Of a stretch of 64,000 nucleotides of DNA, positions 41,899-58,130 are shown one piece after another. A program made the position numbers and the translations under genes. Within the stretch, counting starts at the first letter, position 1; each line of letters opens with the position of its first letter. The stretch spans positions 12,932-76,931 of the forward strand of contig CAMKGA010000003.1 in assembly GCA_946412015.1 (NCBI GenBank), written 5' to 3'. This stretch comes from an uncultured Bacillales bacterium (GTDB lineage Bacteria; Bacillota_I; Bacilli_A; RF39; UBA660). Below the pieces are notes generated by a model, which was given only the letters and a program-made list of their open reading frames with translations, did not search any database and was not told where the DNA came from.

Positions 41899-41908
41899 AA
41901 TTCCTCCA

Positions 41909-42790: not shown

Positions 42791-42806
42791 AATTATCCTA
42801 CCTTTT

Positions 42807-43301
42807 CTAAAAAGCTATATCTTTATAACCTATTTTTTTAATTTCTTCATTAATTATTTGTACACCTATACCATTATCATCTATATCTTCTCCATATTTT
42901 TTACTAAATGTAAGATACACACATCTACCTGAATATACATCATCCATCATACTTGCATAAGGAATAATAATTCCATCTAATTCAATTTGTTTTTCCATTT
43001 CACTTGTAGTATTAATCTCTGGCCACCATCTATCAAACTCTTCTTTATCATCTGGCCCATAAGAACCTTTTTCTTCATCATTATAATAATCCAAAACTTT
43101 TTCGATAACATCGAGTTGTATTTTATCCCAATTTTCAATAAGTTTATTATAACTTTCATACTGTATATCATCTATCTTATCATCTTCAGTCTGAATAATT
43201 AAAATTGGCTTTACAGTTGTTCCTAAAAAATCAACTACAATTTCTCCTTGAAATCCTTCATCTTCAACATATTCTAATTTATTTAAATCTATTTCACTCA
43301 T
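42807..43301 (-). CDS. hypothetical acidic protein (immunity-island member)
   Basis: 164-aa ORF: FQGEIVVDFLG...YESYNKLIENWDKIQ...WWPEINT. Resembles small immunity-type domains, but the family is not confidently recalled. Confidence 0.55.
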   Translation of the reverse strand: MSEIDLNKLEYVEDEGFQGEIVVDFLGTTVKPILIIQTEDDKIDDIQYESYNKLIENWDKIQLDVIEKVLDYYNDEEKGSYGPDDKEEFDRWWPEINTTSEMEKQIELDGIIIPYASMMDDVYSGRCVYLTFSKKYGEDIDDNGIGVQIINEEIKKIGYKDIAF

Positions 43302-43330
43302 TTTTTTTCACCTTTATTTTACATAAACAC

Positions 43331-43918
43331 TTATCTATTCTGCATTGATTTAAAGTTTATGTTAAATCTTATTAATTCATCTATTGGAACTATTTTTCTA
43401 TCTCTTTTTTCTATATCATAACTTGATTGTAATAATGGATAAAAATGATATCCTTCTGTTAGTTTTAAACTCTTACAATCTTCTTTCCAATTATTCCATC
43501 TATATAATTCATAAAATTTACTAACATCATCTATTTTATTAATTAACCAATCTATAAATTGTGTATAATATACTTCTAAATTCTCCCATTCATTAGTATC
43601 TGGAGCAAAATAATATACATAACCATCTTTTAATCCAAACAAGCCACCTAATATATCTTCTCCAATTAATATATCAACACTTTTTGAACTATTATAGTTA
43701 TCATTTTTTAAAGTAACATTTAACTCTCCACATCCATACAATCTAATCCAATTATCTACTACTATTCCACCACATCTTATAAATTGTTCATAAAAGAATT
43801 TGTCTTTATATTGTGAATATTTTTTTTCAAATTCCTCTTTTACTTTATTATCTACATTTTCAATTATAAATATATTATCTTTATTTTTAATATCTTCAAA
43901 AAATAAATCCGTTTTCAT
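43331..43918 (-). CDS. DUF2625-family protein (immunity-island member)
   Basis: GGIVVDNWIRLYGCG...ILGGLFGLKDGYVYYFAPDTNEWENLEVYYTQFIDWL...FYELYRWNNW...YHFYPLL matches my memory of the DUF2625 consensus (GWLRILGSG...VYYFAPDTLEWE...). Confidence 0.75.
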   Translation of the reverse strand: MKTDLFFEDIKNKDNIFIIENVDNKVKEEFEKKYSQYKDKFFYEQFIRCGGIVVDNWIRLYGCGELNVTLKNDNYNSSKSVDILIGEDILGGLFGLKDGYVYYFAPDTNEWENLEVYYTQFIDWLINKIDDVSKFYELYRWNNWKEDCKSLKLTEGYHFYPLLQSSYDIEKRDRKIVPIDELIRFNINFKSMQNR

Positions 43919-43970
43919 GTATCCACCTTCTATTACAAACTATATTTATTATAATTCATTATTCTCCAAT

Positions 43971-44309
43971 TTATTTCATTTTAATAATTTCAAATTCTAT
44001 CCTTATAGGAAATTTATTATTTTTTATCCATTCTGAATATTTTTCTACAAAACTATAGAATTCTTGCTTTGGTTTGTTTGCTAAATTTATTTTGATCATA
44101 AATTCAGAATATTCTTTATTATTTGTAGCTTGTTTATATCCACCGTTCATTATATATGTTACATAGTTATTTAGTTTTTCTTGTAACAAATATAAATGTT
44201 CTTCTATGTGATGGTCCCATTGTACAGCATCACTGATACCTAAACATAATAAATTAGTATTATCTTTAAATGTTGTTAATAAGTCAACTTTATTCACATC
44301 TTGTAACAT
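43971..44309 (-). CDS. small immunity-type protein sharing an N-terminal module with 45849-46799 and pseudogene 44683-44963
   Basis: VDLLTTFKDNTNLLCLGISDAVQWDHHIEEHLYLLQEKLNNYVTYI parallels IDIAYTEDNKYILAIFDHLEWNFATRQEHAYILQDKINDYLDYI. Confidence 0.65.
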   Translation of the reverse strand: MLQDVNKVDLLTTFKDNTNLLCLGISDAVQWDHHIEEHLYLLQEKLNNYVTYIMNGGYKQATNNKEYSEFMIKINLANKPKQEFYSFVEKYSEWIKNNKFPIRIEFEIIKMK

Positions 44310-44640
44310 TATTCATGCCTCCTCTGACATAAAAATTCATATGCATATTCTTCAATACTTTCAATTAAATTATCATTTTCATCGAATAATTCATATTGAA
44401 TTTGTACATCACCTAATGATTTTTCTTCATCTGATTCTAATAATACTGTATAAAACTGTTTCATTAATAACTGAATCAATTAATTCTTTAGCTTCATCAG
44501 TTGAAATACCTTTAGAAACTAATTTTTTATTTGTTCTCCTACATATGTTTCTTTGACTTTGTCAAAATATATTTTTTGCATATTTTCTTTAGATAGCATT
44601 TTTTTGCAAATTCTTCAGCAGTCATATATTTCCTATAATT
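44310..44640 (-). pseudogene. decayed ORF (multiple frameshifts)
   Basis: Minus-strand fragments lie in different frames: MQKIYFDKVKETYVGEQIKN*, then VSKGISTDEAKELIDSVINETVLYSIIRIR*, then QFYTVLLESDEEKSLGDVQIQYELFDENDNLIESIEEYAYEFLCQRRHE*. No single frame is open. Confidence 0.5.
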
Positions 44641-44682
44641 AATCTATATTCATTATTTTATTGTTCCATAGTCAACCACTAT

Positions 44683-44963
44683 TTAATATCTTTTTACATT
44701 ATCATCATATTTATATAACATCCATGCCATATTATAACCATATTCCTTAAGCAATTCTTTAAACTTTTTCAAATACTTTTCATCTAACTGTCCAGAATAT
44801 AGATATCCAACATAACTATCTATTTTTGCAGTTAAAATTTTTCAATGCTCTTCTAAAAAATCTTACTCCCAATTTAAATGATCTAATATTTCTAGAACTA
44901 TTTCATTATCTTCAATATACATTAAATCTATTAATCTATTTTATCTAATTGATCAACTGCCAT
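44683..44963 (-). pseudogene. pseudogene of the DHL(E/N)W-module immunity-type family (1 frameshift + in-frame TAA and TGA)
   Basis: MAVDQLDKID, a frameshift, then LIDLMYIEDNEIVLEILDHLNWE*DFLEEH*KILTAKIDSYVGYLYSGQLDEKYLKKFKELLKEYGYNMAWMLYKYDDNVKRY*. Length is 281 nt, not a multiple of 3. Confidence 0.65.
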
Positions 44964-44977
44964 AATAACTATCCTTT

Positions 44978-45637
44978 CTAAAATACTGACTTTCTATTGT
45001 AATTTGTTATATCACTACCAATTTTCTCATACAGTGATTTAACATCAATATTTTTATCCTTTACAGCTAATAATTCATCATTTGTAACCCCAATAAATTC
45101 TACAAATATTAATTTACCATTTGGAGTATCTATTGGATTAAAATCAGTATCTGGTATTGTTATAAAACCTGTGATATTAGACTTCATTTTTGCATCAATT
45201 CCTTGAGTTTGCCCAGTGTATAAAAATTCATAAGGCTTAAATATTTCTCCTTTTGTAAAAGTAAGTCTCGCAATTGATTGCAAAATATTACAAATGCATT
45301 TTATTTCATCCTCTTCATTTTCATAATTATCTTTCTTAAGTTTAAAAGTAAATTCCATACCATAACCACTTATATCTTTATTTTCACTTTCTTTTTCATA
45401 CAATTCAGAAAGACCATATGTTACAAAATGAAAGTAATCTCCACCATCATAAATACTTATTCCATCTAACGGATCATTACCACCAAAATTCCACTTTATT
45501 AATGTTCCAAAGTGTTGTGGATTTTGACCTTTATATCTTCTTTCACATTCTTTAGTAATTGCATCCCAACCTAACATATTATTTTCATTTACCTCTTTAT
45601 TATTTTTATCTTTTTTAAATTTATCAAATATTCCCAT
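44978..45637 (-). CDS. SUFU-like (suppressor-of-fused family) immunity-type protein
   Basis: GWDAITKECERRYKGQNPQHFGTLIKWNFGGNDPLDGISIYDGGDYFHFVTYGLSELYEKESENKDISGYGMEFTFKL is the bacterial SUFU-domain consensus as I recall it. Confidence 0.8.
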   Translation of the reverse strand: MGIFDKFKKDKNNKEVNENNMLGWDAITKECERRYKGQNPQHFGTLIKWNFGGNDPLDGISIYDGGDYFHFVTYGLSELYEKESENKDISGYGMEFTFKLKKDNYENEEDEIKCICNILQSIARLTFTKGEIFKPYEFLYTGQTQGIDAKMKSNITGFITIPDTDFNPIDTPNGKLIFVEFIGVTNDELLAVKDKNIDVKSLYEKIGSDITNYNRKSVF

Positions 45638-45669
45638 ATTAATATTTCTCCAATCTTAATCAATTGTTT

Positions 45670-45848
45670 CTATTTTTTCCAATGATTATTAATTATTTCA
45701 ATAAGTTCTATTACTTGTTATAGTTTTAATTCCTTAAATTAGGACATTATCTATAGCATTTGGATAGTCAAATGATTCTTTACCTTCTGTATATAATAAT
45801 CTATTATCATCTATTAAATAAATTTATAACTCATAAACTTCTCCACTA
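45670..45848 (-). pseudogene. degraded 3' fragment of a paralog of gene 47608-48699
   Basis: Ends with IELIEIINNHWKK* (the intact gene ends KLIEIINNHWKNREK*). Upstream frames are broken by stops. The DNA at 45669-45710 matches 47615-47655. Confidence 0.55.
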
Positions 45849-46799
45849 CTACAGACTATATTTACTACTTACACTTATCTTTTTACTTTCTCTTGAATAA
45901 ACGAATATATCTTTGCAAAATATAAGATTAGAATTTTCTTTTATGTTCCTGTTAAAATTATCTCTTGATTTATTAATCATTTTATTTCTTAATTTTTTAT
46001 CGTTTAATTTTGTAAAGAATACTAAATCTTTAGTAGGGATACTAATGATAATGTCATCATCTAATTGTTTTGCCAAATCATCCCATATTCCTAATAAGAT
46101 GCTTTCCGCTTCAAAATCTCCACCAGCCATGATTCCGAAAATTCCTGGCTCATTTAATTCAATCCATCTAAATTGTATATTTTTAATTAAATTATTGAAT
46201 GCAATTTCTTGTAATTTTTCTGGTGTCATATTTTTTGGCATCATATCATATGTAAAATACCCAAATTTATCCCCTAAATCTACCATTATTAACCCTATAA
46301 AACTATCCCAATATCTAAATAAAACTAAATTATCTGGATAATCTGGTTGGTTATTATCTATATTCATTAATGAAACTTCTTTCAATGGTTTCTTTGAATA
46401 ATTCTTTTTTATTCTTGGATAGATTTTATCAGGTTCAAAGACATAATCATCACTAAAACCATCATCAAATGGTCCTTCATCTTCTGAGTGTGTCCATTCG
46501 ATATCACAAATATCATCTTTTTCTTTTATAAATTTTTTTATTCTTTCAAGAAATTCAATACAATACTTACTATATGGATATTTTGCAATTATTCTTATAA
46601 CTGGACGTAAACCTGGCTTTGCTTTCTCGGCTTGCTCACTTGTAATATAATCTAGATAATCATTTATTTTATCTTGTAAAATATATGCATGTTCTTGTCT
46701 TGTAGCAAAGTTCCATTCTAAATGATCAAATATCGCTAATATATATTTATTATCTTCTGTATATGCAATATCAATTTTATTTCTATCTACTACTGTCAT
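45849..46799 (-). CDS. immunity-island protein (316 aa) with DHLEW N-terminal module
   Basis: MTVVDRNKIDIAYTEDNKYILAIFDHLEWNFATRQEHAYILQDKINDYLDYI. The C-terminal domain was not recognised. Confidence 0.65.
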   Translation of the reverse strand: MTVVDRNKIDIAYTEDNKYILAIFDHLEWNFATRQEHAYILQDKINDYLDYITSEQAEKAKPGLRPVIRIIAKYPYSKYCIEFLERIKKFIKEKDDICDIEWTHSEDEGPFDDGFSDDYVFEPDKIYPRIKKNYSKKPLKEVSLMNIDNNQPDYPDNLVLFRYWDSFIGLIMVDLGDKFGYFTYDMMPKNMTPEKLQEIAFNNLIKNIQFRWIELNEPGIFGIMAGGDFEAESILLGIWDDLAKQLDDDIIISIPTKDLVFFTKLNDKKLRNKMINKSRDNFNRNIKENSNLIFCKDIFVYSRESKKISVSSKYSL

Positions 46800-46865
46800 T
46801 ATTTCTCCCCTCTTAATTATTTTTCTCTATTTTTCCAATGATTATTAATAATTTCAATAAGTTCT
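46760..46865. repeat. ~105-bp duplicated gene junction, copy 1
   Basis: TATATGCAATATCAATTTTATTTCTATCTACTACTGTCATTATTTCTCCCCTCTTAATTATTTTTCTCTATTTTTCCAATGATTATTAATAATTTCAATAAGTTCT. Differs at 3 positions from 47551-47655. Confidence 0.85.
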
Positions 46866-46900
46866 AGTTTTAATTTTTTAATCGAAGACATTATCATAGA
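46817..46900 (-). pseudogene. 3' fragment of a paralog of gene 47608-48699
   Basis: Reads ...SSIKKLKLELIEIINNHWKNREK* with a stop (TGA) about 30 codons upstream. Only the C-terminal ~12 aa match the intact gene. Confidence 0.55.
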
Positions 46901-46938
46901 ATAATCATATTGTCATTTTTTTATTTTATCCAACATAT

Positions 46939-47481
46939 TTATTCTACTTTCACAGCATTATTAATATCTAATGTTATTGTCCAATAAACATCCATATCAA
47001 TTTCTTCTAAATTATCAAGTTCATCTTTACCTCCTAAAGATAAAGGAACTTTAAATCCAACACATTCACCATACTTTATTATTTTATTGTTATTCTTCTC
47101 TAACCATTGATGAAAATAATTTGATGAAAATATACCGTCAGTATTATTTACAATTTCTTCATGAAATTTAACAATATCCATATCAGTAGCGTAACATTCG
47201 TGTTCTTCAGGATCAAACATAATTATCATCTTTGAATTGTTTTCAATAGCATAAATTTTTCCTATCCAATCATATGAAAATACTGAAAAACCACCTTTAT
47301 AATTTGAAAAATACTCACCGACAATACCGTTCCATTTTTCAATATCTTCTTTCTTAAATATGGTATATAATCCATTTAAGAAAGATTTCCCTGATGTATT
47401 TTCAAGAAATTCATCAATAGAATTACATTTTACACCATTATCATAATTAACATATTTTAAAAATTTATCAAACAAATTCAT
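46939..47481 (-). CDS. DUF1851 (Tdi1 C-terminal-like) immunity-type protein
   Basis: GGFSVFSYDWIGKIYAIE...FDPEEHECYATDMDIVKFHEE...GFKVPLSLGGKDELDNLEEIDMDVYW, typical of DUF1851. Confidence 0.75.
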   Translation of the reverse strand: MNLFDKFLKYVNYDNGVKCNSIDEFLENTSGKSFLNGLYTIFKKEDIEKWNGIVGEYFSNYKGGFSVFSYDWIGKIYAIENNSKMIIMFDPEEHECYATDMDIVKFHEEIVNNTDGIFSSNYFHQWLEKNNNKIIKYGECVGFKVPLSLGGKDELDNLEEIDMDVYWTITLDINNAVKVE

Positions 47482-47590
47482 TCCTCCTATTATATTGTAT
47501 CTTGCTTTTAATTATTTTACTTGTTGTAAAATGGATACAAGTACTTTTTTTATATGCAATATCATTTTTATTTCTATCTACTACTGTCAT
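47468..47590 (-). pseudogene. 5' fragment (first ~13 codons) of a paralog of gene 45849-46799, reading through into unrelated sequence
   Basis: MTVVDRNKNDIAYKKSTCIHFTT... compared with MTVVDRNKIDIAYTEDN... in the intact gene. Overlaps the RBS and start of 46939-47481. Confidence 0.6.
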
Positions 47591-47655
47591 TATTTCTCCC
47601 CTCTTAATTATTTTTCTCTATTTTTCCAATGATTATTAATTATTTCAATAAGTTT
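47551..47655. repeat. ~105-bp duplicated gene junction, copy 2
   Basis: Near-identical to 46760-46865. Spans the 3' end of 47608-48699, the intergenic RBS and the first codons of an MTVVDRNK... gene. Confidence 0.85.
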
Positions 47656-48699
47656 TATTGCTTGATTCTTATAATTATCCTTTACCTCTTCAAATTCACT
47701 AAATGTATTACCGCTATTTCTAGAAGTAATTTTATCCTTTTCATATCCCCCTGATACACCTAGCATGTACTCTTTAACTCTAAAACTATTACTTTTAAAC
47801 CTGTAAATATAATAGATAAGCCCATCATACTCTAATTTATCAATAAGTTCTATATTATCTGGTTTATTTCCTAATTCAGTTGGATACATAAGCCAATCAA
47901 TCATTTGTGATTTTGCAATATCTTCCTGTGTTATTTTATCAAGGGATATTTTATTAAGTACATTTGCATTTTCAAATATAGAAATTACTCTATATAAGTT
48001 TTTTTCACTTTTTAAAAGTTCATCTATTTCATTTGAATTAACGTCTAAATTATTAACTAATTTGTATTTTGCAATAAATAATTTACATTCAAAGTTTAAA
48101 TTAAGTTTCGATAATTCTTTTATTAGTTCATCTATTCTTTTATCATCCAAATGTATTGATAAATCTATAATTATTTCTAAATCTGCATAAACTGAATCAT
48201 CTATTGCTTCATTATTCTTTATATAATTAATAATATCTGTTAATTTTCTAACTGTATTATTAGCTATATTATCTTTCTCATCATCATTAAACATTTTAAA
48301 CTCAGGATCATTATTTAATATAATAAGTGCCATACAATTAGCAATACCATTGTCAACATGTTCATATACTGTTATTAATGTGTGTTTTAATGTTTTAAAT
48401 TTTTCTTTAAACAGAGGATACTCTTCTAAATTAGGTATAAATGGTAAATATTCACAAGTAGATTCAATTAACATACAACATAGCATAAACTTAAATTTAT
48501 CATCAGATTTATATAATTCTTCAATTACATATGGTAACTTTTCAAAATCAAGATCATCTATTTCATCACTAAAAATATCATCTATCCATAAATCTAAGTT
48601 TTCAGGACTAATATCAATATTGTCAACTATATTTTTTAATTCTTCTTGTGATTCAATATTCAAGTTATTAATCTCTTCCCTTAATTTATCAAAATTCAT
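47608..48699 (-). CDS. immunity-island protein (363 aa), family not recognised
   Basis: ORF with the start moved to the ATG at 48699, immediately after the upstream stop (the track start is a GTG inside GAGGTGG). The C-terminal tail IEIINNHWKNREK recurs in two remnants. Confidence 0.65.
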   Translation of the reverse strand: MNFDKLREEINNLNIESQEELKNIVDNIDISPENLDLWIDDIFSDEIDDLDFEKLPYVIEELYKSDDKFKFMLCCMLIESTCEYLPFIPNLEEYPLFKEKFKTLKHTLITVYEHVDNGIANCMALIILNNDPEFKMFNDDEKDNIANNTVRKLTDIINYIKNNEAIDDSVYADLEIIIDLSIHLDDKRIDELIKELSKLNLNFECKLFIAKYKLVNNLDVNSNEIDELLKSEKNLYRVISIFENANVLNKISLDKITQEDIAKSQMIDWLMYPTELGNKPDNIELIDKLEYDGLIYYIYRFKSNSFRVKEYMLGVSGGYEKDKITSRNSGNTFSEFEEVKDNYKNQAIKLIEIINNHWKNREK

Positions 48700-48701
48700 A
48701 A

Positions 48702-49493
48702 TTAGTTGTTCCACCTCTCAACAAATATTTCTTTATCCTTATTATCTATTTCAAACACATTACTAGATGTCCTAATAATCGTTGTTCCAATATCATATTC
48801 TAAATATTCTTCAATACTAGGCTCTAATAAAATAACATCATATAATCTTATTAAGGCAATGTTATCACTATTGTTTATATAATCATCAGATTCATCACCT
48901 GCAACAAATGACCATCCACTATCTTCATTATTTAATGGTTCTTCTCTATGCATATAACCAATCTTATAGTTATCATCAATAATTCTTTTTGATACATATG
49001 CCATCTTATTTAATAACTCTTTACGCTTCTTTATATTATCATAATAAGATTCGTGACTTTTAAATTCAGAAATCATTTCATTAGTTATTTCAATATCTGT
49101 ATCTATTTTTGATATGTCACCATCAAATATGCGTTTATCATCTGCTTCATTTTTAAGTGCTATAGCTAATTTAAATAATTCATCAGAATTGACATCAATA
49201 GTGTCTTTTATTTCTTTAAAAAGATGTTTACCTCTTTCATCATAAATATATAAATATATGCTACAGTTACTATGAATAATTAATTTCACTGCTCCTAAAT
49301 TATCTTTATCATTATAAAACACCATAAAATTAGATAACTTCTGATTTACATACCAATCAAATTCAGTACCATTGTTACCATTCATATAGTATATTGCACC
49401 ATTATCTTCTAAATCCTTATTTTTTACATTAGGAAGATATTGGTTTATACCGTTATTAATTATTTCTTTTATTTTAAGTATTACTTTATTCAT
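48702..49493 (-). CDS. protein with C-terminal DUF2185/Imm33-like immunity domain
   Basis: YVSKRIIDDNYKIGYMHREEPLNNEDSGWSFVAGDESDDYINNSDNIALIRLYDVILLEPSIEEYL. Confidence 0.7.
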   Translation of the reverse strand: MNKVILKIKEIINNGINQYLPNVKNKDLEDNGAIYYMNGNNGTEFDWYVNQKLSNFMVFYNDKDNLGAVKLIIHSNCSIYLYIYDERGKHLFKEIKDTIDVNSDELFKLAIALKNEADDKRIFDGDISKIDTDIEITNEMISEFKSHESYYDNIKKRKELLNKMAYVSKRIIDDNYKIGYMHREEPLNNEDSGWSFVAGDESDDYINNSDNIALIRLYDVILLEPSIEEYLEYDIGTTIIRTSSNVFEIDNKDKEIFVERWNN

Positions 49494-49513
49494 TTAGCCT
49501 CCCAATTAATATA

Positions 49514-49918
49514 CTACTTATACATAAATAAATTATTAATTATTTCTTCAAATTGACAAGTAGCCATTTTATCAAAATAAAGTACATAACCATTAAATTT
49601 TATTTTACCTTCATTAAATACTACTACTTTATTTAAATTAATTCTAAAATAAGTATTCTTTATAAATAAGAACTTATTTTCTTCTTTTCTACAGTCAACA
49701 ATGTCATCTAAAATATTTATTTTAAAAGTAACAGAACCATTATCTATAAAAATGTTTTTATTAGTCATAGTTAGTTTTGCATCTATTCCAAGATTTTGTT
49801 GTTTTTCTGTACCAAACGTTTTTAATTTAGATGTAAATACTACTTTTTCATCTTCTGTAATCTTAGCATCATATATATTATCTACTTCATTTAATTTATT
49901 AAGATATTCAATATTCAT
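49514..49918 (-). CDS. hypothetical protein (immunity-island member)
   Basis: 134-aa ORF. No motif recognised. Confidence 0.55.
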   Translation of the reverse strand: MNIEYLNKLNEVDNIYDAKITEDEKVVFTSKLKTFGTEKQQNLGIDAKLTMTNKNIFIDNGSVTFKINILDDIVDCRKEENKFLFIKNTYFRINLNKVVVFNEGKIKFNGYVLYFDKMATCQFEEIINNLFMYK

Positions 49919-49954
49919 ATTTTGTTTCTCCTTTTTTTCATTTATAAAACTATT

Positions 49955-50554
49955 TTAGCACCAATCAAATTGAAATCCATATTTTTCTTCTATATCGTTT
50001 ACAATTTCATCATCTTGAGCTGACAAAAATATATCATTTTCAGATACAAACCCTATTGCTTTATCAGTATAACAATAAACACAATAATTACCATCAATTT
50101 CTGACATTTTAATAAAATTTTTGTTTAATATATCTAGGCATGATGTATCAGTTTGTACAATACAGTTTAAAAAGCCTGTCCCTTGTATAGCTAACAAATA
50201 TAAAATAAAATCTTTAATATCTAAATTAATCTCTTCCTTATAGTCATCAGTAAAATAAACTATCTTTTGATTTTTTACATTTAATCCATAACTACAAACT
50301 CCTTGATTTTCAACAGCAAGTGTTAATATATCATTTTTAACTTCTAACTTTTCTGGTGAAATAATGCTATACAAACATTCTAAAAAATCTGTTTTGTTCC
50401 CAAACATTATATAAAACACTTGTAATGGTTCTGGTATACTAATATTTAATTTTTTCTCAATTGAAACTATTTTATCTTTTTTTAAAATATTTTTATTATC
50501 TTGTTCAAAATAAATTTTACTTATTAATTCTAATTTTTCTTTAAAATTTTTCAT
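49955..50554 (-). CDS. SMI1/KNR4 (SUKH superfamily) immunity-type protein
   Basis: VSIEKKLNISIPEPLQVFYIMFGN... then NQGVCSYGLNVKNQKIVYF, the SUKH-type pattern. Confidence 0.7.
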   Translation of the reverse strand: MKNFKEKLELISKIYFEQDNKNILKKDKIVSIEKKLNISIPEPLQVFYIMFGNKTDFLECLYSIISPEKLEVKNDILTLAVENQGVCSYGLNVKNQKIVYFTDDYKEEINLDIKDFILYLLAIQGTGFLNCIVQTDTSCLDILNKNFIKMSEIDGNYCVYCYTDKAIGFVSENDIFLSAQDDEIVNDIEEKYGFQFDWC

Positions 50555-50583
50555 ATCATTATCTTTCCTATCTAATAATTTTA

Positions 50584-51231
50584 CTATTTATTCTTTTTAC
50601 TATATTTATTAAATTCATTAATAAAATCTTTAGGGCTGCGATTATTAACTGACAACAATTCAAAATTAGTAATATCTCTAATTTTAATACCATCAATTTC
50701 ATAATTCAAAAATTGTTCTAAACTCATAGCATCAGAAAAATTAATATAACAGTCTCCAATTTCTGCCTTTTCGTCTAAATCAGGAATTTTTTTTAATTGT
50801 GCTTCAAAATAGTAAATCTTACTATTAATTCTTACATACATTGCCATAAACCCGGCGAATGTTAAACTAAAGTCAAAAACTTCTTTAGGCATATTAACAT
50901 TATCATATTCAAAATGTTTTTGCTCACTTAAATATTTATATATTTTTTTAGCATAAAACAAATTTCGAAATGTCAAAAAAACTGTCGCTAAAAAGATTAA
51001 AACCATAATACCCACTAATATTATGGATAATCTTGCTAGGAATCCCAAAATCCAATCTAATTGTTTTACATCATTCTTCCACCTTACAATTGAAAAGAAA
51101 AAGAAAACTAATATTAAAATTAATATTTTATAAAAATCTTTTAAAAGATAATTTACATGCTTTTTTTTAATTTTTTTCTTATCTATTTGATATTCCTGCT
51201 GTAAATTAATCAAATATTCATCTTTATTCAT
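50584..51231 (-). CDS. hypothetical two-TM membrane protein (immunity-island member)
   Basis: Start set at the ATG at 51231 (AAGGAGATAATGAT-ATG). TM segments ILILILVFFFFSIV and LARLSIILVGIMVLIFLATVFLTF. Confidence 0.6.
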   Translation of the reverse strand: MNKDEYLINLQQEYQIDKKKIKKKHVNYLLKDFYKILILILVFFFFSIVRWKNDVKQLDWILGFLARLSIILVGIMVLIFLATVFLTFRNLFYAKKIYKYLSEQKHFEYDNVNMPKEVFDFSLTFAGFMAMYVRINSKIYYFEAQLKKIPDLDEKAEIGDCYINFSDAMSLEQFLNYEIDGIKIRDITNFELLSVNNRSPKDFINEFNKYSKKNK

Positions 51232-51244
51232 ATCATTATCTCCT

Positions 51245-52120
51245 TTATCTATTTCCTGACGCATACTCTAAAGTATTAACATCAATAACTTCTCGAATAG
51301 GTTGTATTAGCGAATCTTCATATTGTAACTTCCATTTTGTAATATTATTACTATCTTTATTTTTCAATCCATCAATTGTATCCCCATTTTTTATTGGATT
51401 ATCATTATCAAATATATATTTAAGAAAACTATATGCATGATTTATAATTTGATCTGGATTAATGGCATGAAAATGATACTGTAAATCGGGCATAAAAAGT
51501 GTACTCATACCTAATGTATCAACCAGCATATCATTTGTTCCAGTAATATTAAAGTATCTCATATTAACAGCATAATGAATAAAGCGATGTTCTTTAGATA
51601 TCTTACAATTTACTATATCTTCCCTTTTTAACATTTTTTTTGATGTATCAAATACTACTGCTTTACATGTTGGATATAATTCAACTAAAGCTTCAATATA
51701 TTCAACTAACATGTTAGCTCTAACTTTATAATTTAAAAAGTCAGCTAAAAAGTCTGTTGCAACTACTTGATAATTACAACTATCTAAGATATCTATTCCA
51801 TTTTCAACATCCCATAATTGTGTTTTCGCAATATCGTCCATAATTGGTTCGTTAATTTCTACACACTCTGATATTAAAAGATGTACGGGAAGATCAATTT
51901 CTTTTTCATTCTTAATTAGATATTTTTTAGATACAAAATCTACCACTTTTTTATCATAATGCATACATTCAACATTTTCAAGGTGCTTATTCATTATTTC
52001 TATCATATTATCTCGATTTGGCATATCACAAGGCTTACCCATAAGTAAACGAATAACAAATACAGATCCTGGTCTTTCTCCTAAATCACTTAAATCCTGT
52101 TTTAATTCTTTTTCTTTCAA
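51245..52120 (-). CDS. immunity-island protein, possibly DUF4261-like
   Basis: TLGMSTLFMPDLQYHFHAINPDQIINHAYSFLKYIFDNDNPIKNGDTIDG. The family name is recalled only tentatively. Confidence 0.5.
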   Translation of the reverse strand: MKEKELKQDLSDLGERPGSVFVIRLLMGKPCDMPNRDNMIEIMNKHLENVECMHYDKKVVDFVSKKYLIKNEKEIDLPVHLLISECVEINEPIMDDIAKTQLWDVENGIDILDSCNYQVVATDFLADFLNYKVRANMLVEYIEALVELYPTCKAVVFDTSKKMLKREDIVNCKISKEHRFIHYAVNMRYFNITGTNDMLVDTLGMSTLFMPDLQYHFHAINPDQIINHAYSFLKYIFDNDNPIKNGDTIDGLKNKDSNNITKWKLQYEDSLIQPIREVIDVNTLEYASGNR

Positions 52121-52131
52121 AATGTCATCAC

Positions 52132-52527
52132 CTAATTTTTTAATATTTCTTCTAATGTAGTATCTTTATCATTTTTTAAATCATAAAAACCTGTAAAATT
52201 GCCTTTTTTATCATACATCCAACATAAATCTGTACCATATGGTGCATCAAATATTTTAAGTATCAATGGATTAATTTTATTAATCGATGTTGCAGATAAA
52301 ATCATAAAGTTATCTGGATTATTAACATATTCCTGTGTATCATCACATGAATATATTGTCCAACCATTTAAGCTCTCATTTGAACTTTTCTCTCTATACG
52401 TATATCTTATAGGCCTATTTGCACATACATTCTTTGATACCATAAATCCTCCATAAGCACTATCATTTATATCATCATTTACATAATTATTTATTGCATT
52501 TTGTTTTGCTTTTTTATTAAAAAACAT
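52132..52527 (-). CDS. DUF2185/Imm33-like immunity-type protein
   Basis: VSKNVCANRPIRYTYREKSSNESLNGWTIYSCDDTQEYVNNPDNFMILSATSINKINPLILKIF parallels the C-terminus of 48702-49493. Confidence 0.7.
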   Translation of the reverse strand: MFFNKKAKQNAINNYVNDDINDSAYGGFMVSKNVCANRPIRYTYREKSSNESLNGWTIYSCDDTQEYVNNPDNFMILSATSINKINPLILKIFDAPYGTDLCWMYDKKGNFTGFYDLKNDKDTTLEEILKN

Positions 52528-52929: not shown

Positions 52930-54063
52930 CTACTTTCCAGTTTCAATACTTACTCTTTGTACTAGTGCAATAGATATTAATAATGATAATGTAAAACTAC
53001 CTCCATAGGATAAAAATGGAAGTGGTACACCAGTTAAAGGAATAAGGCCAAATAACCCTCCTAAGTTGATTGCAATATGCATAAATATGTATGTTGCAAC
53101 TCCAATACAAGTATACTTATTTTTTATAGAGTTAGTCATTCTAGAAAGTCTAAGTATTCTATATATAAGTATAATATAGTTTAAAAATATAATGCTTCCC
53201 CCAATAAGACCGTTCTCTTCAGAAATTATAGAAAATACCATATCAGTATGAGGTTCTGGTATATAAGAATACTTTTGTGTACTCTTTCCTATTCCAAGCC
53301 CAAATACATTACCTTTATTAATAGCTATAAAAGCATTACAAATCTGATATCCTGTTGTAGAATAATTAGCACATGGATTACGATAATCAAATCTTGATAA
53401 CTGAGCTTTAGTAAGTGGATTCCCTTTAATAATAAATATTCCAAGAATTCCTATAAACATTAATATAATACCAATAACAATTGTTTTAAACTTATCATTT
53501 GATGTAATTGGACTAGTTAAATATATTACAAAATATATAACTGCTAATATTGCTGCCGTTCCTAAATCCTTTTGCAAACATACAAGTAGTATTAATGGAA
53601 TACCAATTAATAATATAATAATTAAGTACTTTAAGTGACTTACTTTTTCACTAACTAAAACTTTATTAAACTTCTCAAGCATAAATGATAATGTAACTAT
53701 CATAATTGGCTTTGCCAGTTCACTAGGCTGCAAATTAAAAAAGCCAAGCTGAATCCAGTTTGCTGCACCTCTAGTAGTTCCACCTTGAAATATTAAAAAA
53801 GCATTTAAAAATAGTATTCCAAAAAATAGAATTGGTATAAAATTATAATACCGTTTTAAAGGGATATTAATTACTATTACACTTGCAACAAACGATATAA
53901 CAAGAATAGCTAAATGCCTATAAAAATAATAATATAATGACTTGTCTAAATGAATAACTGCTTCTCTACTTGATGCAGTAACAATATTAAAAAGTCCATA
54001 CAAACTAAGTAAAATAGTAATAAATAATATAACTTTATCCATATCTTTTAGTGTCTTTCTCAT
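52930..54063 (-). CDS. SEDS-family peptidoglycan polymerase (FtsW/RodA/SpoVE)
   Basis: About 10 TM segments. Motifs include GAANWIQLGFFNLQPSELAKP, YIPEPHTDMVFSIISEENG and LPFLSYGGS. Confidence 0.9.
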   Translation of the reverse strand: MRKTLKDMDKVILFITILLSLYGLFNIVTASSREAVIHLDKSLYYYFYRHLAILVISFVASVIVINIPLKRYYNFIPILFFGILFLNAFLIFQGGTTRGAANWIQLGFFNLQPSELAKPIMIVTLSFMLEKFNKVLVSEKVSHLKYLIIILLIGIPLILLVCLQKDLGTAAILAVIYFVIYLTSPITSNDKFKTIVIGIILMFIGILGIFIIKGNPLTKAQLSRFDYRNPCANYSTTGYQICNAFIAINKGNVFGLGIGKSTQKYSYIPEPHTDMVFSIISEENGLIGGSIIFLNYIILIYRILRLSRMTNSIKNKYTCIGVATYIFMHIAINLGGLFGLIPLTGVPLPFLSYGGSFTLSLLISIALVQRVSIETGK

Positions 54064-54185
54064 TTTACCACCTATTTTAATTTTAACATATATTATTTTG
54101 TTTTACAACAAATCAAAATAGGTATTTTTGATGAGCAAATTAATAATTATGTAATACAATATATTGAATAGATAGGAGGTATTAT

Positions 54186-54356
54186 ATGTATTACTATGGT
54201 GGATACCAAGGCTATGGTGGAGCACCAGGATATGGTTGTTGTAACCAAGGAGGATACTCTACAGGTTACGGTGCAGCTATAATCCTAGTATTATTTATTC
54301 TTTTAGTAATTGTAATTGGTGCACGCACTTGGGGCGGAAATAACTTTAATAATTAA
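54186..54356 (+). CDS. 56-aa YjcZ-like Gly/Tyr-rich small membrane (sporulation-type) protein
   Basis: AGGAGGTATTAT-ATG. Translates to MYYYGGYQGYGGAPGYGCCNQGGYSTGYGAAIILVLFILLVIVIGARTWGGNNFNN. Below the ORF-track cutoff. Confidence 0.7.
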   Translation: MYYYGGYQGYGGAPGYGCCNQGGYSTGYGAAIILVLFILLVIVIGARTWGGNNFNN

Positions 54357-54360
54357 TAAG

Positions 54361-54390
54361 AAAACACTATCATTTTTTTGATAGTGTTTT
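54361..54390. terminator. bidirectional terminator (perfect 12-bp stem)
   Basis: AAAACACTATCA-TTTTTT-TGATAGTGTTTT, flanked by A- and T-runs. Lies between the convergent 54186-54356 (+) and 54389-54685 (-) genes. Confidence 0.8.
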
Positions 54391-54685
54391 AATTATTGTT
54401 TACCTTGTATTTTTTCAATTCATCATCAACCATTTTGATATAACTATTATAATCATCTGTCATATATCCAATATGATATATTTTTTTTACAACTTCTTTA
54501 TTAAATACAATTGTCTCTTGATGTGATGAAAATCCATAAGGATAAACTACAGCATAGTAATCATAAGGTTTTTTTGTTTTACTATTTATAGGAGAATATC
54601 CAATAATCATAAATTTGTTTTCATTGAACCTAATTGAAACAACAGAGCCAACCGGTAACCAATCGTTTTCTAAATCAAAACTCAT
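54389..54685 (-). CDS. DUF4176-family protein (paralog 3)
   Basis: DWLPVGSVVSIRFNENKFMIIGYSPINSKTKKPYDYYAVVYPYGFSSHQETIVFNKEVVKKIYHIGY. Start set at the ATG at 54685 (GGAGGAATTG-ATG). Confidence 0.75.
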   Translation of the reverse strand: MSFDLENDWLPVGSVVSIRFNENKFMIIGYSPINSKTKKPYDYYAVVYPYGFSSHQETIVFNKEVVKKIYHIGYMTDDYNSYIKMVDDELKKYKVNNN

Positions 54686-54932
54686 CAATTCCTCCATTTT
54701 TAACAATTTCTTTTATTTCTGAAAATTCTACAATTAACTCTTTTGCAAGATTATCAGATTTTACTCTTTCAAATATCCACCCATCATCTTTTCTAATTAA
54801 CTTACAAAAATATCCACATTCACTTTCTTCATCTACAAGAAAAGCGTACCAATCTCCATTAAACATTTTTACATCATAAACATATAAATCGTTTTCACCA
54901 TTACTTATATATTGCCCTTTTTCTATATTCAT
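54675..54932 (-). CDS. hypothetical 85-aa cytoplasmic protein in toxin-like operon
   Basis: ORF overlapping both neighbours. MNIEKGQYISNGENDLYVYDVKMFNGDWYAFLVDEE... No motif recognised. Confidence 0.6.
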   Translation of the reverse strand: MNIEKGQYISNGENDLYVYDVKMFNGDWYAFLVDEESECGYFCKLIRKDDGWIFERVKSDNLAKELIVEFSEIKEIVKNGGIDEF

Positions 54933-55312
54933 TTCTTTTTTCCACCTACTTCATAATCATCATCATAATCATCATCATAATCATCATCATAATCATCATA
55001 GTCTTTATTTTCCTTTTTATGAAATATATCTGGCTTCACTGCCTTAAAAAATGATGCAAATCCAACTACTCCAAGTGCTAATAATGGACCGTCTAAAGCA
55101 ATTTCTGCAAAAATATCATTTCTAGGTATTTCAAAAATTGCAGGAATAGATCCATATACAATCATAGAAGCACAACATATAAGAAATCTTTTTATGTTCT
55201 TCCCAAAATCATTTTTTTTTGCTTTCTTTTTAAAATCTTTTATTTGTTTATCTGTCATATAAAATGTATCTATAACCTCGTGATTATTTAAATTCATTTT
55301 CCCATTTTTCAT
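54929..55312 (-). CDS. two-TM membrane protein with poly-(Asp/Tyr) acidic C-terminal tail; candidate immunity protein
   Basis: TM segments FLICCASMIVYGSIPAIF and LLALGVVGFASFF. Tail is KDYDDYDDDYDDDYDDDYEVGGKKK. Confidence 0.7.
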   Translation of the reverse strand: MKNGKMNLNNHEVIDTFYMTDKQIKDFKKKAKKNDFGKNIKRFLICCASMIVYGSIPAIFEIPRNDIFAEIALDGPLLALGVVGFASFFKAVKPDIFHKKENKDYDDYDDDYDDDYDDDYEVGGKKK

Positions 55313-55581
55313 TGTTTTTTCTCCTTTTTAGCTACAACTTCTAACATTTCTTTATATTTTTTATCCTTATATCCATTATAATAAATCAATTTTATATCAT
55401 CTGAATTAAAAACATAATTTTTTTCTTTGGTTAAAAAACCTTCCGGATATGTATATCCAATGTAATCATATCTTTCCCCTGGCTTACTTGGATCAGTTGC
55501 ACCATACCCTATTATAAAAAACTTTTTATCTGTACCATTTAATTTTACAACAGTTCCTATTGGTAAATATTTATCATTCAT
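55309..55581 (-). CDS. DUF4176-family protein (paralog 2)
   Basis: KYLPIGTVVKLNGTDKKFFIIGYGATDPSKPGERYDYIGYTYPEGFLTKEKNYVFNSDDIKLIYYNGY. The ATG at 55581 is preferred over the GTG at 55593. Confidence 0.75.
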   Translation of the reverse strand: MNDKYLPIGTVVKLNGTDKKFFIIGYGATDPSKPGERYDYIGYTYPEGFLTKEKNYVFNSDDIKLIYYNGYKDKKYKEMLEVVAKKEKKQ

Positions 55582-55861
55582 TTTTTTCACCACTCTTTTT
55601 CATAGCCCATAAAACATCTTCATAATATTCTTCTAATTCCTTATCAGCAAATCCCAAATGATATACTTTTTCAATATTATCATTATTAAACATAAATAAC
55701 TCATCAGAATTTAAATAGCCATAAGGATAAAGGCAGGCACTATATTCATATATTTTTTTATTTTCACTTGAAATTTGATTAACACCAATTATCATAAGTT
55801 TCCTCGTTCCTTTTTTCAAAGAAACTAAACTACCTATTGGTAATAAAGAAATATTTTTCAT
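55574..55861 (-). CDS. DUF4176-family protein (paralog 1)
   Basis: LLPIGSLVSLKKGTRKLMIIGVNQISSENKKIYEYSACLYPYGYLNSDELFMFNNDNIEKVYHLGF. Confidence 0.75.
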   Translation of the reverse strand: MKNISLLPIGSLVSLKKGTRKLMIIGVNQISSENKKIYEYSACLYPYGYLNSDELFMFNNDNIEKVYHLGFADKELEEYYEDVLWAMKKSGEKNE

Positions 55862-55880
55862 AAATTATACACCTTCCATA

Positions 55881-57317
55881 TCATCCAAATAAAGATCCAA
55901 AAATATTGGTTCCAAATGAGCCAATGGCGCCAAGAGCTTCTTCGGCTAAATTTTTAACATTATTAACAGCACCAGATACATCGATAGAAAAACCAAATTC
56001 AAAACCAATACCAAGTGCTAGTCCTATTTTAAAATTAAATTTACCATCTACAAGTCCAGCATTGAATTGAGCCCCAGCTCCAATTTTAACTTTTCCAGCA
56101 GCTTGTATTCCAAGTCCACCTAAATTAATATTCGCACTTCCTCCTGCACTACATAGCTCTGCATTCGCTTCCAACTTAACACCTGCATCTACTTTCCACT
56201 TCCCATTTTCATCTTTATAAACTCCGAAAGACCCAGAAGCTGAAGCATCTGCAGCTAAAGCATTTGCTTCACCATTGATTCCTGCAGAAGCTACTTCATA
56301 ACTTTTACCATTAATCTCAGCTGTTCTAGCAAATCCTGCTTCGCCTTCAACATGAACTACGGAAGCTTCAACGTTTGCACCTATATTAATATTAGACGGT
56401 CCAATTTCCCAATTACCATTAGCTTCTGCGTGAAGAAAGTCTGCTTCTCCTCTTAAATTAAAAGTAGTAGTTCCCAGTTCATCATGCCAATCTTTTTTTA
56501 CGTGTCCTTCAGCTTGCAATAAGTTAAATTCTGCATGACCATCAGATAACTCATAAGCTCCAACTCCTACAGACATTCCTTCATTTTCATTATAATCATC
56601 TGATTTTATACTTCCGCCCAAATAATCCTTCTGATCTTCTTCTACTTCCCATAAACCACCACCTGCAATTGTGTACCAACTTTTTTTAGGCCTAAAACCA
56701 GGTATGTAATCTGAATCTCCACGAACTACATTAACATTTCTTCCTTCTTTAACTAAATCCTTTAACTTACTATTTTTTTTATTATCTTTAAGTTCTTGTC
56801 GCATACTTTTTTTACCGTGTTTATAATTAATTGCATCCTTTACACCGAACTTATCACTAGAGTCTCTAATGCTTTTATAATCTTTATTGTCATAATCATA
56901 CTTTTTTGCATAATCTTTTCTCGCTTTTTTATATTTTTTCATATGAGTAATATAGTCGCTTTGATCATGTTCTATAAAAAAGTTACCTCTTCTATTTAAT
57001 GCATTACCGCCAATTTGTGCCACTACAAATATGTTATGTGGATTATGTATATTTTTTTTTAAAATTTTATCTCTATTTACATTTCTCAATCCAGCATCAA
57101 CATATGTCATTTTAATATGATTCTCTATAAAATCTATAATATCTTTATTTCTTTGTACACCAGGATCAAATACATCTGTATTATAATCTAAATCCTCATA
57201 ATCCTGAGTTTGAGGCATTATAAATTCTTCATTTTTCGTTTTAGAATTATTATAATTTTTTATATTTAATGCATTAGTATTACGTAAATTAATGTTTTGA
57301 ACAGCAGAGCTAGCCAT
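55881..57317 (-). CDS. 478-aa candidate secreted membrane-active toxin: unrecognised N-terminal region + Ala/Gly/Glu beta-repeat region + C-terminal glycine zipper
   Basis: Start at the ATG at 57317 (GGAGGGTGATGAC-ATG, reads MASSAVQN). No signal peptide. The C-terminal ~230 aa has about 7 units with paired (A/V)E(A/G) motifs (GHAEFNLLQAEGHV, GEADFLHAEANG, GANVEASVVHVEGEAG, INGEANALAADASASG, GVKLEANAELCSAGG). It ends KIGLALGIGFEFGFSIDVSG...GAIGSFGTNIFGSLFG. Confidence 0.6.
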   Translation of the reverse strand: MASSAVQNINLRNTNALNIKNYNNSKTKNEEFIMPQTQDYEDLDYNTDVFDPGVQRNKDIIDFIENHIKMTYVDAGLRNVNRDKILKKNIHNPHNIFVVAQIGGNALNRRGNFFIEHDQSDYITHMKKYKKARKDYAKKYDYDNKDYKSIRDSSDKFGVKDAINYKHGKKSMRQELKDNKKNSKLKDLVKEGRNVNVVRGDSDYIPGFRPKKSWYTIAGGGLWEVEEDQKDYLGGSIKSDDYNENEGMSVGVGAYELSDGHAEFNLLQAEGHVKKDWHDELGTTTFNLRGEADFLHAEANGNWEIGPSNINIGANVEASVVHVEGEAGFARTAEINGKSYEVASAGINGEANALAADASASGSFGVYKDENGKWKVDAGVKLEANAELCSAGGSANINLGGLGIQAAGKVKIGAGAQFNAGLVDGKFNFKIGLALGIGFEFGFSIDVSGAVNNVKNLAEEALGAIGSFGTNIFGSLFG

Positions 57318-57362
57318 GTCATCACCCTCCAGCCATATCATTACCCTAGCTATTATACGTTA

Positions 57363-57391
57363 AGTATATCACAGCCTGATAACATTGTCAA
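57363..57391 (-). promoter_or_regulatory. near-consensus sigma-A promoter of the toxin-like operon
   Basis: Minus strand TTGACA (57386-57391), 17 nt spacer, TATACT (57363-57368), about 45 nt upstream of the ATG at 57317. Confidence 0.7.
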
Positions 57392-57400
57392 CAAAGATTT

Positions 57401-57436
57401 ACATATTGGATAGTGTTTACATATTGGATAGTGTTT
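57401..57436. repeat. perfect 18-bp tandem direct repeat (x2) immediately upstream of the -35 box; candidate activator/operator site
   Basis: ACATATTGGATAGTGTTT ACATATTGGATAGTGTTT. On the minus strand this reads AAACACTATCCAATATGT twice. Confidence 0.85.
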
Positions 57437-57581
57437 ACACAAATAATTGATTTTTTAAATCAAGATTTGCTCAATATAAATTTATAAATATTTGACATAT
57501 ATCTATTAATATTATAAGAATTATAACCATTATTGATTTTTATTTTTTTTAATTGTATGTTATAATGTTTTCGGTGGTTTT

Positions 57582-58130
57582 ATGTTTAAAAAATTAAATA
57601 TATTGGATGAAAAAGAAAAGTCATTGCGCAAAGTAAGTGTTGATGTCAAATTTCCAATTAGTAAAAAGTATAAAGATTTAGTAAAACAGATTATTGATGA
57701 ATTAACATACAGTCAAATAGAAGAGTTAGCTGAAAAATATAATTTAAGACCTGGTATGGGTCTTGCATTTCCACAACTTGGAATTAATGAAAGAATTATC
57801 GTTATAGTTCACGAAATTGATGAGGGTAAATTTGATAATTATGTCGTTGTAAACCCTAAAATAATAAGTTATTCTAGTGAAATGATAGCAGCTGAAGCTG
57901 GTGAAGGTTGCCTTAGTGTAAATAGGGAAATAGAAGGACATGTAAAAAGATATGCCAGAGTTAGAATTGAAGGATATGATCTTGACGGAAATAAAATCGT
58001 AATAAGAGCACGTGATGAACTTTCAATAGCCTTTCAACATGAAATTGATCATTTAAATGGAATTCTATTTTATGATAGAATAGATCCTAAACATAAATTT
58101 TATAGTGAGATTGAATTGAGGTTGATATAA
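57582..58130 (+). CDS. def: peptide deformylase
   Basis: GLAFPQLG, EGCLS, HEIDHLNG. Confidence 0.95.
   Translation: MFKKLNILDEKEKSLRKVSVDVKFPISKKYKDLVKQIIDELTYSQIEELAEKYNLRPGMGLAFPQLGINERIIVIVHEIDEGKFDNYVVVNPKIISYSSEMIAAEAGEGCLSVNREIEGHVKRYARVRIEGYDLDGNKIVIRARDELSIAFQHEIDHLNGILFYDRIDPKHKFYSEIELRLI

Follow-up and report, generated by a model that had tools for sequence, protein, structure and literature searches.

Is a leaderless, Gly-rich protein whose gene is followed by three small DUF4176 genes a secreted toxin, and if so, of what kind and by which route does it leave the cell? The question is raised by a 64-kb window (the whole stretch of DNA analysed, 64,000 nucleotides of contig CAMKGA010000003.1 in GenBank assembly GCA_946412015.1, from an uncultured Bacillales bacterium), in which an open reading frame (ORF) on the minus strand at 55881-57317 heads a six-gene operon. 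The 478-amino acid (aa) product is referred to here as the effector. The operon is interpreted as encoding a secreted interbacterial effector with DUF4176 chaperones and an immunity protein, associated with a type VIIb secretion system (T7SSb) and acting on the envelope or membrane; judged from sequence comparison and modelling, this reading is given a probability of roughly 0.55. It is carried by the structure of the gene, the membership of its product in a protein family, the beta periodicity of that family, its linkage to DUF4176 genes and the presence of relatives in T7SSb loci. A toxin-chaperone-immunity operon linked to T7SSb is a kind of system that is already known. Measured against Pfam, NCBIfam, the PDB and the literature searched, three features appear to be new: an all-beta module for which there is neither a model nor a structure, the regularity with which it is accompanied by small DUF4176 genes, and an architecture without an LXG domain; the comparison with TelE, EsxX, TspA, TelD and YfjB is one of published descriptions.

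The effector gene and the family of its C-terminal module

The effector ORF is a real gene. It has 478 codons plus a stop, a length also given by independent gene callers, and its product is identical to database protein P0163 and differs from P0001 by I85N. Translation starts at the ATG at 57317, which has a Shine-Dalgarno sequence (GGAGGG) 7 nucleotides upstream; with an alternative upstream ATG, the Shine-Dalgarno sequence would fall inside the coding region. The first-pass annotation, made from the sequence alone, had called the protein leaderless, without a Sec signal peptide. This is correct, because the N-terminus is polar and no 19-residue window reaches the hydrophobicity of a transmembrane (TM) helix: the Kyte-Doolittle maximum over the whole protein (19-residue mean) is 1.41, at residue 433.

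When 1.84 billion representatives (clusters at 50% identity) were searched exhaustively with phmmer, 232 proteins matched at E<=1e-3, of which 33 reached E<=1e-10. In nearly all matches, residues ~280-470 of the effector are aligned to the relatives' own C-termini. The novelty earlier attributed to the whole protein is therefore only partly upheld: rarity holds for the N-terminal half alone, and the C-terminal module is that of a large existing family (232 representatives). The family has no model in the collections searched. Pfam, NCBIfam and PHROGs hold nothing for the effector, and none of 100 relatives scanned has a Pfam or NCBIfam model over the module, the sole relevant matches being N-terminal WXG100 domains in 2 of the 100. 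No relatives of the target are found in GTDB species representatives, JGI metagenome contigs, IMG/VR or plasmids, and a prophage or plasmid origin is not supported, as there is no PHROGs, IMG/VR or plasmid match. In a word-indexed protein search, the target alone retrieved only itself, and searches with alignments gave 13 and 2 matches; this low yield is probably due to low-complexity words swamping the candidate list.

The core of the module reads AEA.L..A.GS.GV.VLG.....G.VKVG.GA.A..G..DGK.....GAALGVG...GF..DV.G, and the target is similar to the family over residues ~285-470, the core stretch VK.G.GA....G..DGK.....G.A.G.G....F..D included. G413, G421, G436 and G438 are invariant across 100 sequences. 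The tail is usually Trp-rich (...AW.....W), with an ...(I/L)FG ending in a subset of members that includes the target. In front of the module the family is diverse. In at least 70 of the 150 best-scoring relatives, a profile built from 18 of them recognises a helical, WXG100-like N-terminal domain. In the PDB this profile matches EsxB (4iyh, E=6e-5), an LXG chain (8gmh_B, E=5e-3) and also EsxA. Sec signal peptides are found in P0057 and P0153-P0155, and a LysM domain in P0156. As the Sec-type members keep the Trp/Phe tail too, the tail is taken to be part of the functional module and not a T7SS signal. By these alignments the module is found at the C-terminus across many bacteria, behind different export domains, and such a module behind interchangeable trafficking domains is the pattern that would be expected of a polymorphic toxin.

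Predicted structure of the C-terminal half

The effector falls into two halves that differ in composition: K, N, D and Y abound in residues 1-240, and Gly and Ala make up 16% and 14% of residues 241-478. All the motifs that had been quoted from the C-terminal half are present (residues 260-273, 290-301, 313-328, 347-362, 379-393 and 407-421), as is the tail GLALGIGFEFGF...GAIGSFGTNIFGSLFG. Residues 251-450 are internally repetitive (summed top-10 off-diagonal scores 328 vs 248 +/- 17 in 200 shuffles, 0/200 of which reached 328). The period is ~33-37 residues, equal to two of the 16-20 aa repeat units described at first, or to one hairpin, and the [AV]E[AG] motif is weakly enriched (4 vs 1.4 expected, p about 0.04). 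Averaged over the family, hydrophobicity has a strong period of 2 over residues ~295-447 and a period of 3.6 over residues 451-478. The beta-rich Ala/Gly module (residues ~285-447; 55977-56465, minus strand), which includes the four invariant glycines, is predicted to form long antiparallel amphipathic strands. It is followed by a C-terminal amphipathic helix (residues 451-478; 55884-55967, minus strand) that ends in ...SLFG, the tail of the relatives being mostly Trp-rich (...W..W, ...IFG). AlphaFold2 with a 15-sequence alignment models eight antiparallel strands of 14-31 residues and then a helix, with a mean predicted local distance difference test score (pLDDT) of 64 and 108 residues at 70-90; on the single sequence it is uninformative (mean pLDDT 32). 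The C-terminal half is thus predicted by the model to be all-beta, capped by an amphipathic helix.

The weak Foldseek matches of the model in the PDB are mostly outer-membrane beta-barrels, and the picture in BFVD is similar, with no significant match. The fold is left unassigned, and an outer-membrane protein-like, aerolysin-type or haemolysin-type barrel is not claimed, as Foldseek searches of the PDB and BFVD gave no significant match to one. Repeats of the haemagglutinin or phage-spike type were likewise set aside, being without Pfam support even at E<=10.

The terminal glycines had been read at first as a GxxxG-type zipper like that of TelE. On that account the effector would be a TelE/EsxX/TspA-like membrane-depolarising toxin, the C-terminal alpha-helical zipper of which oligomerises as TM helices. 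The C-terminus is indeed Gly-rich, with spacings G432xxxG436, G438xxxG442 and G473xxxG477, its last 28 residues are helical by periodicity as well as in the model, and DUF4176 proteins accompany both TelE and TelD (PMC12478183; bioRxiv 10.64898/2026.03.12.711312). However, GLALGIGFEFGF lies in an amphipathic strand of period 2, with an F/I/L face and a G/E/S face, and only the last ~28 residues are helical. It is considered a beta strand rather than a helical zipper because hydrophobicity there alternates with period 2 family-wide. In residues 423-447, which hold most of the supposed zipper, this period is found family-wide and the model has strands. The same is seen over residues 402-447 as a whole, whereas the mark of TelE/EsxX-type toxins is an extended (G/A/S)xxxGxxxG motif in a hydrophobic alpha-helix near the C-terminus. 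In addition, the hydrophobicity maximum stays below that of a TM helix, the GxxxG pairs are isolated with no canonical GxxxGxxxG run, and a PDB sequence search gave no match for the effector or for the family profile (although the deposited EsxX chain may not cover the toxin domain). An LXG domain is also missing, as are immunity genes of the DUF5085 or DUF443 type. A helical zipper toxin is therefore held to be very improbable.

The N-terminal half

The N-terminal region (residues 1-240; 56598-57317, minus strand) has no known domain, and is polar, probably disordered and of non-LXG type. The first-pass view that it contains no LXG or WXG100 domain is borne out by Pfam and NCBIfam searches, which were negative at E<=0.01 and also at E<=10. 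A profile of the effector N-terminus compared with one of the WXG-like N-termini of relatives gave an hhalign probability of 0.09%, and it matched no chain in the PDB. Residues 105-240 match solely the metagenomic proteins P0002 and P0003. Two short motifs are common to the LXG-less clade, to which both the target and P0009 belong. The first is acidic/aromatic and lies near residue 40, the target version being DYEDLDY (residues 39-45). The second is a linker directly before the beta module, GSDNQYRVGQNW.YG in relatives vs GDSDYIPGF...SWY in the target. The YxxxD spacing of the N-terminal motif was considered as a T7SS signal and dropped, as the spacing is not conserved across the clade.

A close variant of the effector, P0167, has 15 differences, of which 12 are substitutions within residues 24-49 (57170-57248 of the window), around the acidic/aromatic motif. 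It keeps Y40, D44 and Y45; the variable patch is localised and the remainder of the protein is otherwise invariant.

Linkage to DUF4176 and type VII secretion

Two relatives are encoded in loci that contain EssC. At the P0152 locus, which is of T7SSb type, the genes encode EssC, a YukD-like protein, two WXG100 proteins, Mbeg1-like lipases, four small WXG100-like/helical proteins, P0152, a 141-aa TM protein, a DUF4176 protein, WXG100 and an FHA protein. The P0009 locus encodes the C-terminal part of EssC, a YukD-like protein, a 99-aa protein, a 243-aa WXG-like protein, a 68-aa protein, a 247-aa WXG-like protein, P0009 and a DUF4176 protein. The EssC part at the P0009 locus (FtsK_SpoIIIE) is 32% identical to the EssC of locus L002 (E=1e-102). 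P0009 resembles the target in the general type of its N-terminus, which is non-helical. For P0151 and P0160, a small DUF4176 gene is directly next downstream. Co-occurrence of homologues with DUF4176, proposed at first as a check, is found at every non-Sec locus examined: a small DUF4176 gene lies 1-2 genes downstream in 5/5 of them (target, P0152, P0009, P0151 and P0160). With three small DUF4176 genes at the target locus and module homologues in two EssC-containing loci, the T7SS-type accessory context suggested by the first-pass annotation is also supported.

DUF4176 proteins are toxin-specific T7SSb chaperones, known so far in that role alone (PMC12478183). A small DUF4176 protein is needed for the stability and export of the membrane-depolarising toxin TelD (PMC12478183). 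In the same study, small DUF4176 genes were found to adjoin LXG genes only rarely, and binding of their products to membrane-inserting segments of toxins was put forward as speculation. In TelE, a glycine-zipper toxin, the middle and C-terminal regions are stabilised by a DUF4176 protein (bioRxiv 10.64898/2026.03.12.711312).

Upstream of P0009 (locus L005, 2255-4348) are genes for two ~245-aa helical proteins with sub-threshold similarity to WXG100, and for helical proteins of 99 and 68 aa. These could be in-trans targeting partners for effectors that lack LXG. The hallmark of LXG operons, two or more small helical Lap/WXG100-like genes beside the toxin gene, is not seen at the target locus, and a tblastn search of the window with the WXG-like proteins of L002 and L005 found nothing.

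The target locus could also be read without type VII secretion. The protein might remain intracellular, for example in sporulation or in association with the envelope, be released on lysis, or take some other route, the DUF4176 proteins being general small chaperones. The absence of T7SSb core genes (essC, essB, esaA, esxA) and WXG100 genes from the window, the lack of an LXG/WXG domain in the effector, the use of Sec by some family members, and neighbours that include genes for a YjcZ-family sporulation peptide and an FtsW/RodA/SpoVE protein are all in keeping with this. However, DUF4176 proteins are known so far solely as T7SSb toxin chaperones (PMC12478183), P0009, which is LXG-less like the target, is encoded directly downstream of essC, and the YjcZ-like gene is on the opposite strand, past the terminator of the operon. 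A role unconnected with T7SSb is accordingly regarded as improbable.

Downstream of the gene for P0057, one of the Sec-type members (L091, 84-3919), lie an ABC ATPase gene and an ABC2 permease gene; the arrangement resembles a bacteriocin immunity/export locus.

Operon structure and candidate immunity genes

The six genes of the operon abut or overlap, in the order effector, DUF4176 A, DUF4176 B, 127-aa protein, 85-aa protein, DUF4176 C, all on the minus strand. The operon was first described as the effector with three DUF4176 genes and a small membrane protein, and this description stands: the DUF4176 matches have E-values of 7e-27, 6e-22 and 7e-21, and the 127-aa protein has two hydrophobic segments. 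Protein A (55574-55861, PF13780, 95 aa), a candidate toxin chaperone, is 48% identical to the DUF4176 protein encoded after P0009. Protein B (55309-55593, PF13780) has 94 aa from a GTG start, with gene callers placing the start at an ATG at 55581 (90 aa), and protein C (54389-54706, PF13780) has 105 aa from a TTG start (98 aa according to gene callers). One of the operon DUF4176 proteins matches the solved structure of a small DUF4176 protein (PDB 9dcs, E=3.4e-9).

The 127-aa protein (54929-55312), which ends in an acidic (DYDD)n tail, is the candidate immunity protein. The 85-aa protein (54675-54932) is acidic and soluble, and is a candidate second (cytoplasmic) immunity or accessory protein. 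Neither has a match in Pfam, NCBIfam or PHROGs. An identical effector and the same operon are found on 16 metagenomic contigs, and among contigs with the identical effector (loci L094-L100) the (DYDD)n tail varies, so that the candidate immunity protein has 119, 123 or 127 aa.

Next to the operon is an ~11-kb group of immunity-type genes (41320-52527, minus strand): GAD-like/Tdi1, DUF6985, DUF2625, two DUF6572, SUFU, Tdi1_C, two Imm33 and DUF4261, with genes lacking a family match interspersed. An FtsW/RodA/SpoVE gene and a YjcZ-like gene lie between this group and the operon. It looks like an orphan immunity island beside an effector operon.

These surroundings bear on a further alternative, that the effector is a non-toxic beta-rich protein, secreted or retained on the surface as an adhesive, matrix or amyloid-like scaffold or as a contact-dependent signal like B. 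subtilis YFJ, with DUF4176 proteins merely keeping an aggregation-prone protein soluble. The Ala/Gly-rich strand faces would suit tight sheet-on-sheet packing, the effector sequence is invariant across the 16 contigs, and the LysM-fused member points to association with the cell wall. There are also precedents in glycine-zipper proteins that aggregate on the cell surface (CdzC/D, PMC5380434) and in YfjB, a toxin that also acts as a signal (bioRxiv 10.1101/2023.08.02.551746). However, the small TM protein is at the usual immunity position in the operon, the island of immunity families adjoins it, a Sec-type member adjoins an ABC transporter, and the C-terminal module follows interchangeable trafficking domains, as toxin modules do. 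A surface protein without toxicity is thus considered unlikely.

Proposed mode of action

For an exported toxin, the following course is proposed for export, chaperoning, membrane activity and immunity. In the producer, amphipathic segments of the effector would be bound and shielded by the three small DUF4176 proteins, so that the effector stays soluble and competent for export. Export would be by a T7SSb encoded elsewhere in the genome, and helical WXG100-like partners acting in trans may help. Once outside, the effector would engage the target membrane or envelope through its amphipathic hairpins and aromatic tail, and these would oligomerise to form a pore or a beta assembly that disrupts membranes. 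Protection of the producer would fall to the two-TM protein, perhaps together with the 85-aa protein.

A number of observations weigh against this interpretation. The window has no essC, esxA/WXG100 or Lap-like gene, and no T7SS-targeting domain is recognisable in the target. The AlphaFold model is only moderately confident, and Foldseek of this model against the PDB gave nothing significant, pore-forming toxins and barrels included (best E=7.5e-3, template modelling score <=0.20). Amphipathicity of period 2 would be expected of a soluble beta-sandwich or a cross-beta assembly too. The effector is identical across many samples and not polymorphic, the immunity protein is a candidate by position and topology alone, and no family member has a demonstrated activity.

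A broader version is more tentative: that the module defines a new cross-phylum class of beta-structured, membrane-inserting toxins with small DUF4176 proteins as dedicated chaperones, and that the LXG-less clade (target and P0009) has a new mode of T7SSb targeting. This mode might use helical partners in trans or the conserved N-terminal acidic/aromatic motif. The broader version is thought possible, with the balance tipped against it. If the proposals hold, T7SS effectors would gain a large unannotated all-beta toxin module. The small DUF4176 proteins would gain a client, on which earlier work could merely speculate (PMC12478183). The LXG-less members, one of them directly after essC, would become a test case for T7SSb substrate recognition without an LXG/Lap signal, all in an uncultured lineage of rumen/gut Bacilli without prior knowledge of interbacterial antagonism.

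Comparison with known systems

The closest systems in layout are T7SSb operons for LXG polymorphic toxins with DUF4176 (Ltc/Lcp) chaperones, such as TelA/LtcA, TelB/LtcB, TelD with MQE10_09270, and TelE/LcpE (PMC12478183; bioRxiv 10.64898/2026.03.12.711312), which like the target operon combine a leaderless effector with DUF4176 and a small membrane protein. The target DUF4176 proteins are of the small class (94-105 aa), which is linked to TelD and TspA: the one tested stabilises TelD, and the genes lie among DUF443 immunity genes against TelD/TspA (PMC12478183). Relatives of the target module are likewise found in essC loci. However, at the target locus an LXG domain and upstream Lap/WXG100 partner genes are missing, there are three DUF4176 paralogues where those operons have one, the toxin module is predicted to be all-beta and has no family model, and the immunity candidate is not DUF443, DUF5085 or DUF600. 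In the literature surveyed, the T7SSb membrane toxins TspA, TelD, TelE and EsxX are reported or modelled as helical.

TelE and EsxX (PMC10434224; PMC12744356) share with the target a Gly-rich C-terminus and an expected action on membranes. With TelE it would also share chaperone dependence, which for the target is proposed. With EsxX, which needs both soluble and membrane-bound immunity (PMC12744356), it may share two layers of immunity, one soluble and one membrane-bound. However, TelE is modelled as largely alpha-helical and the glycine zippers of both toxins are of the TM-helix-packing kind, whereas the Gly-rich segment of the target is beta-periodic. PDB searches found no sequence similarity, and the comparison is one of descriptions.

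YfjB is a precedent for Gly-rich T7SS toxins outside the LXG group (bioRxiv 10.1101/2023.08.02.551746). It is T7SS-dependent without being a classical LXG protein, has a weakly hydrophobic, Gly-rich C-terminal half that is less hydrophobic than typical TM helices, and is countered by a membrane-anchored antitoxin. It differs in its WXG100 partner YfjA and its EspG-like chaperone YfjC, with no DUF4176 mentioned in the paper; the two proteins are compared by description. CdzC/CdzD of Caulobacter (PMC5380434), likened to the target by description as well, are small-residue, Gly-rich, aggregation-prone killers that act on the envelope, but belong to a different phylum and have no DUF4176-type chaperone.

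Promoter, terminator and other features of the window

The window DNA has a GC content of 24%. Its glycyl-tRNA synthetase (GlyRS) is 94-95% identical to that of three metagenome-assembled genomes (MAGs), two of them rumen assemblies labelled uncultured Erysipelotrichaceae (RUG14702, 95%; RUG12438, 94%) and one labelled uncultured Bacillales, and ~80-84% identical to GlyRS of gut MAGs labelled 'Bacilli', 'Acholeplasma sp. CAG:878' and 'Ca. Faecisoma'. Both point to a low-GC, uncultured Bacilli lineage of the rumen or gut as the host. The operon promoter, TTGACA-17-TATACT with an extended -10 TG (57363-57391, minus strand), matches at 11/12 positions and is the top match in 53900-57700. Its -35 hexamer is abutted by a perfect 18-bp tandem direct repeat (57403-57438, minus strand), consisting of two copies of GTAAACACTATCCAATAT and a partial third copy. 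The two copies are the sole matches in the window at <=3 mismatches. This candidate regulator-binding site may, from its position, be an operator or activator site. The operon ends at a bidirectional terminator-like hairpin with a 12-bp stem (54361-54390). A YjcZ-family (tiny_TM_bacill) sporulation-type peptide gene on the plus strand (54186-54356; 56 aa, Gly/Tyr-rich) converges on this terminator. The upstream neighbour of the effector gene is a divergent peptide deformylase gene.

A 1551-aa ORF at 107-4762 (minus strand) was considered as EssC and rejected, as it has no FtsK domain, Pfam match or TM segment; it encodes a large cytoplasmic protein without an assigned function. A RhuM-family virulence-protein gene (7711-8751, minus strand) lies among folate/one-carbon genes (SHMT, FolD).

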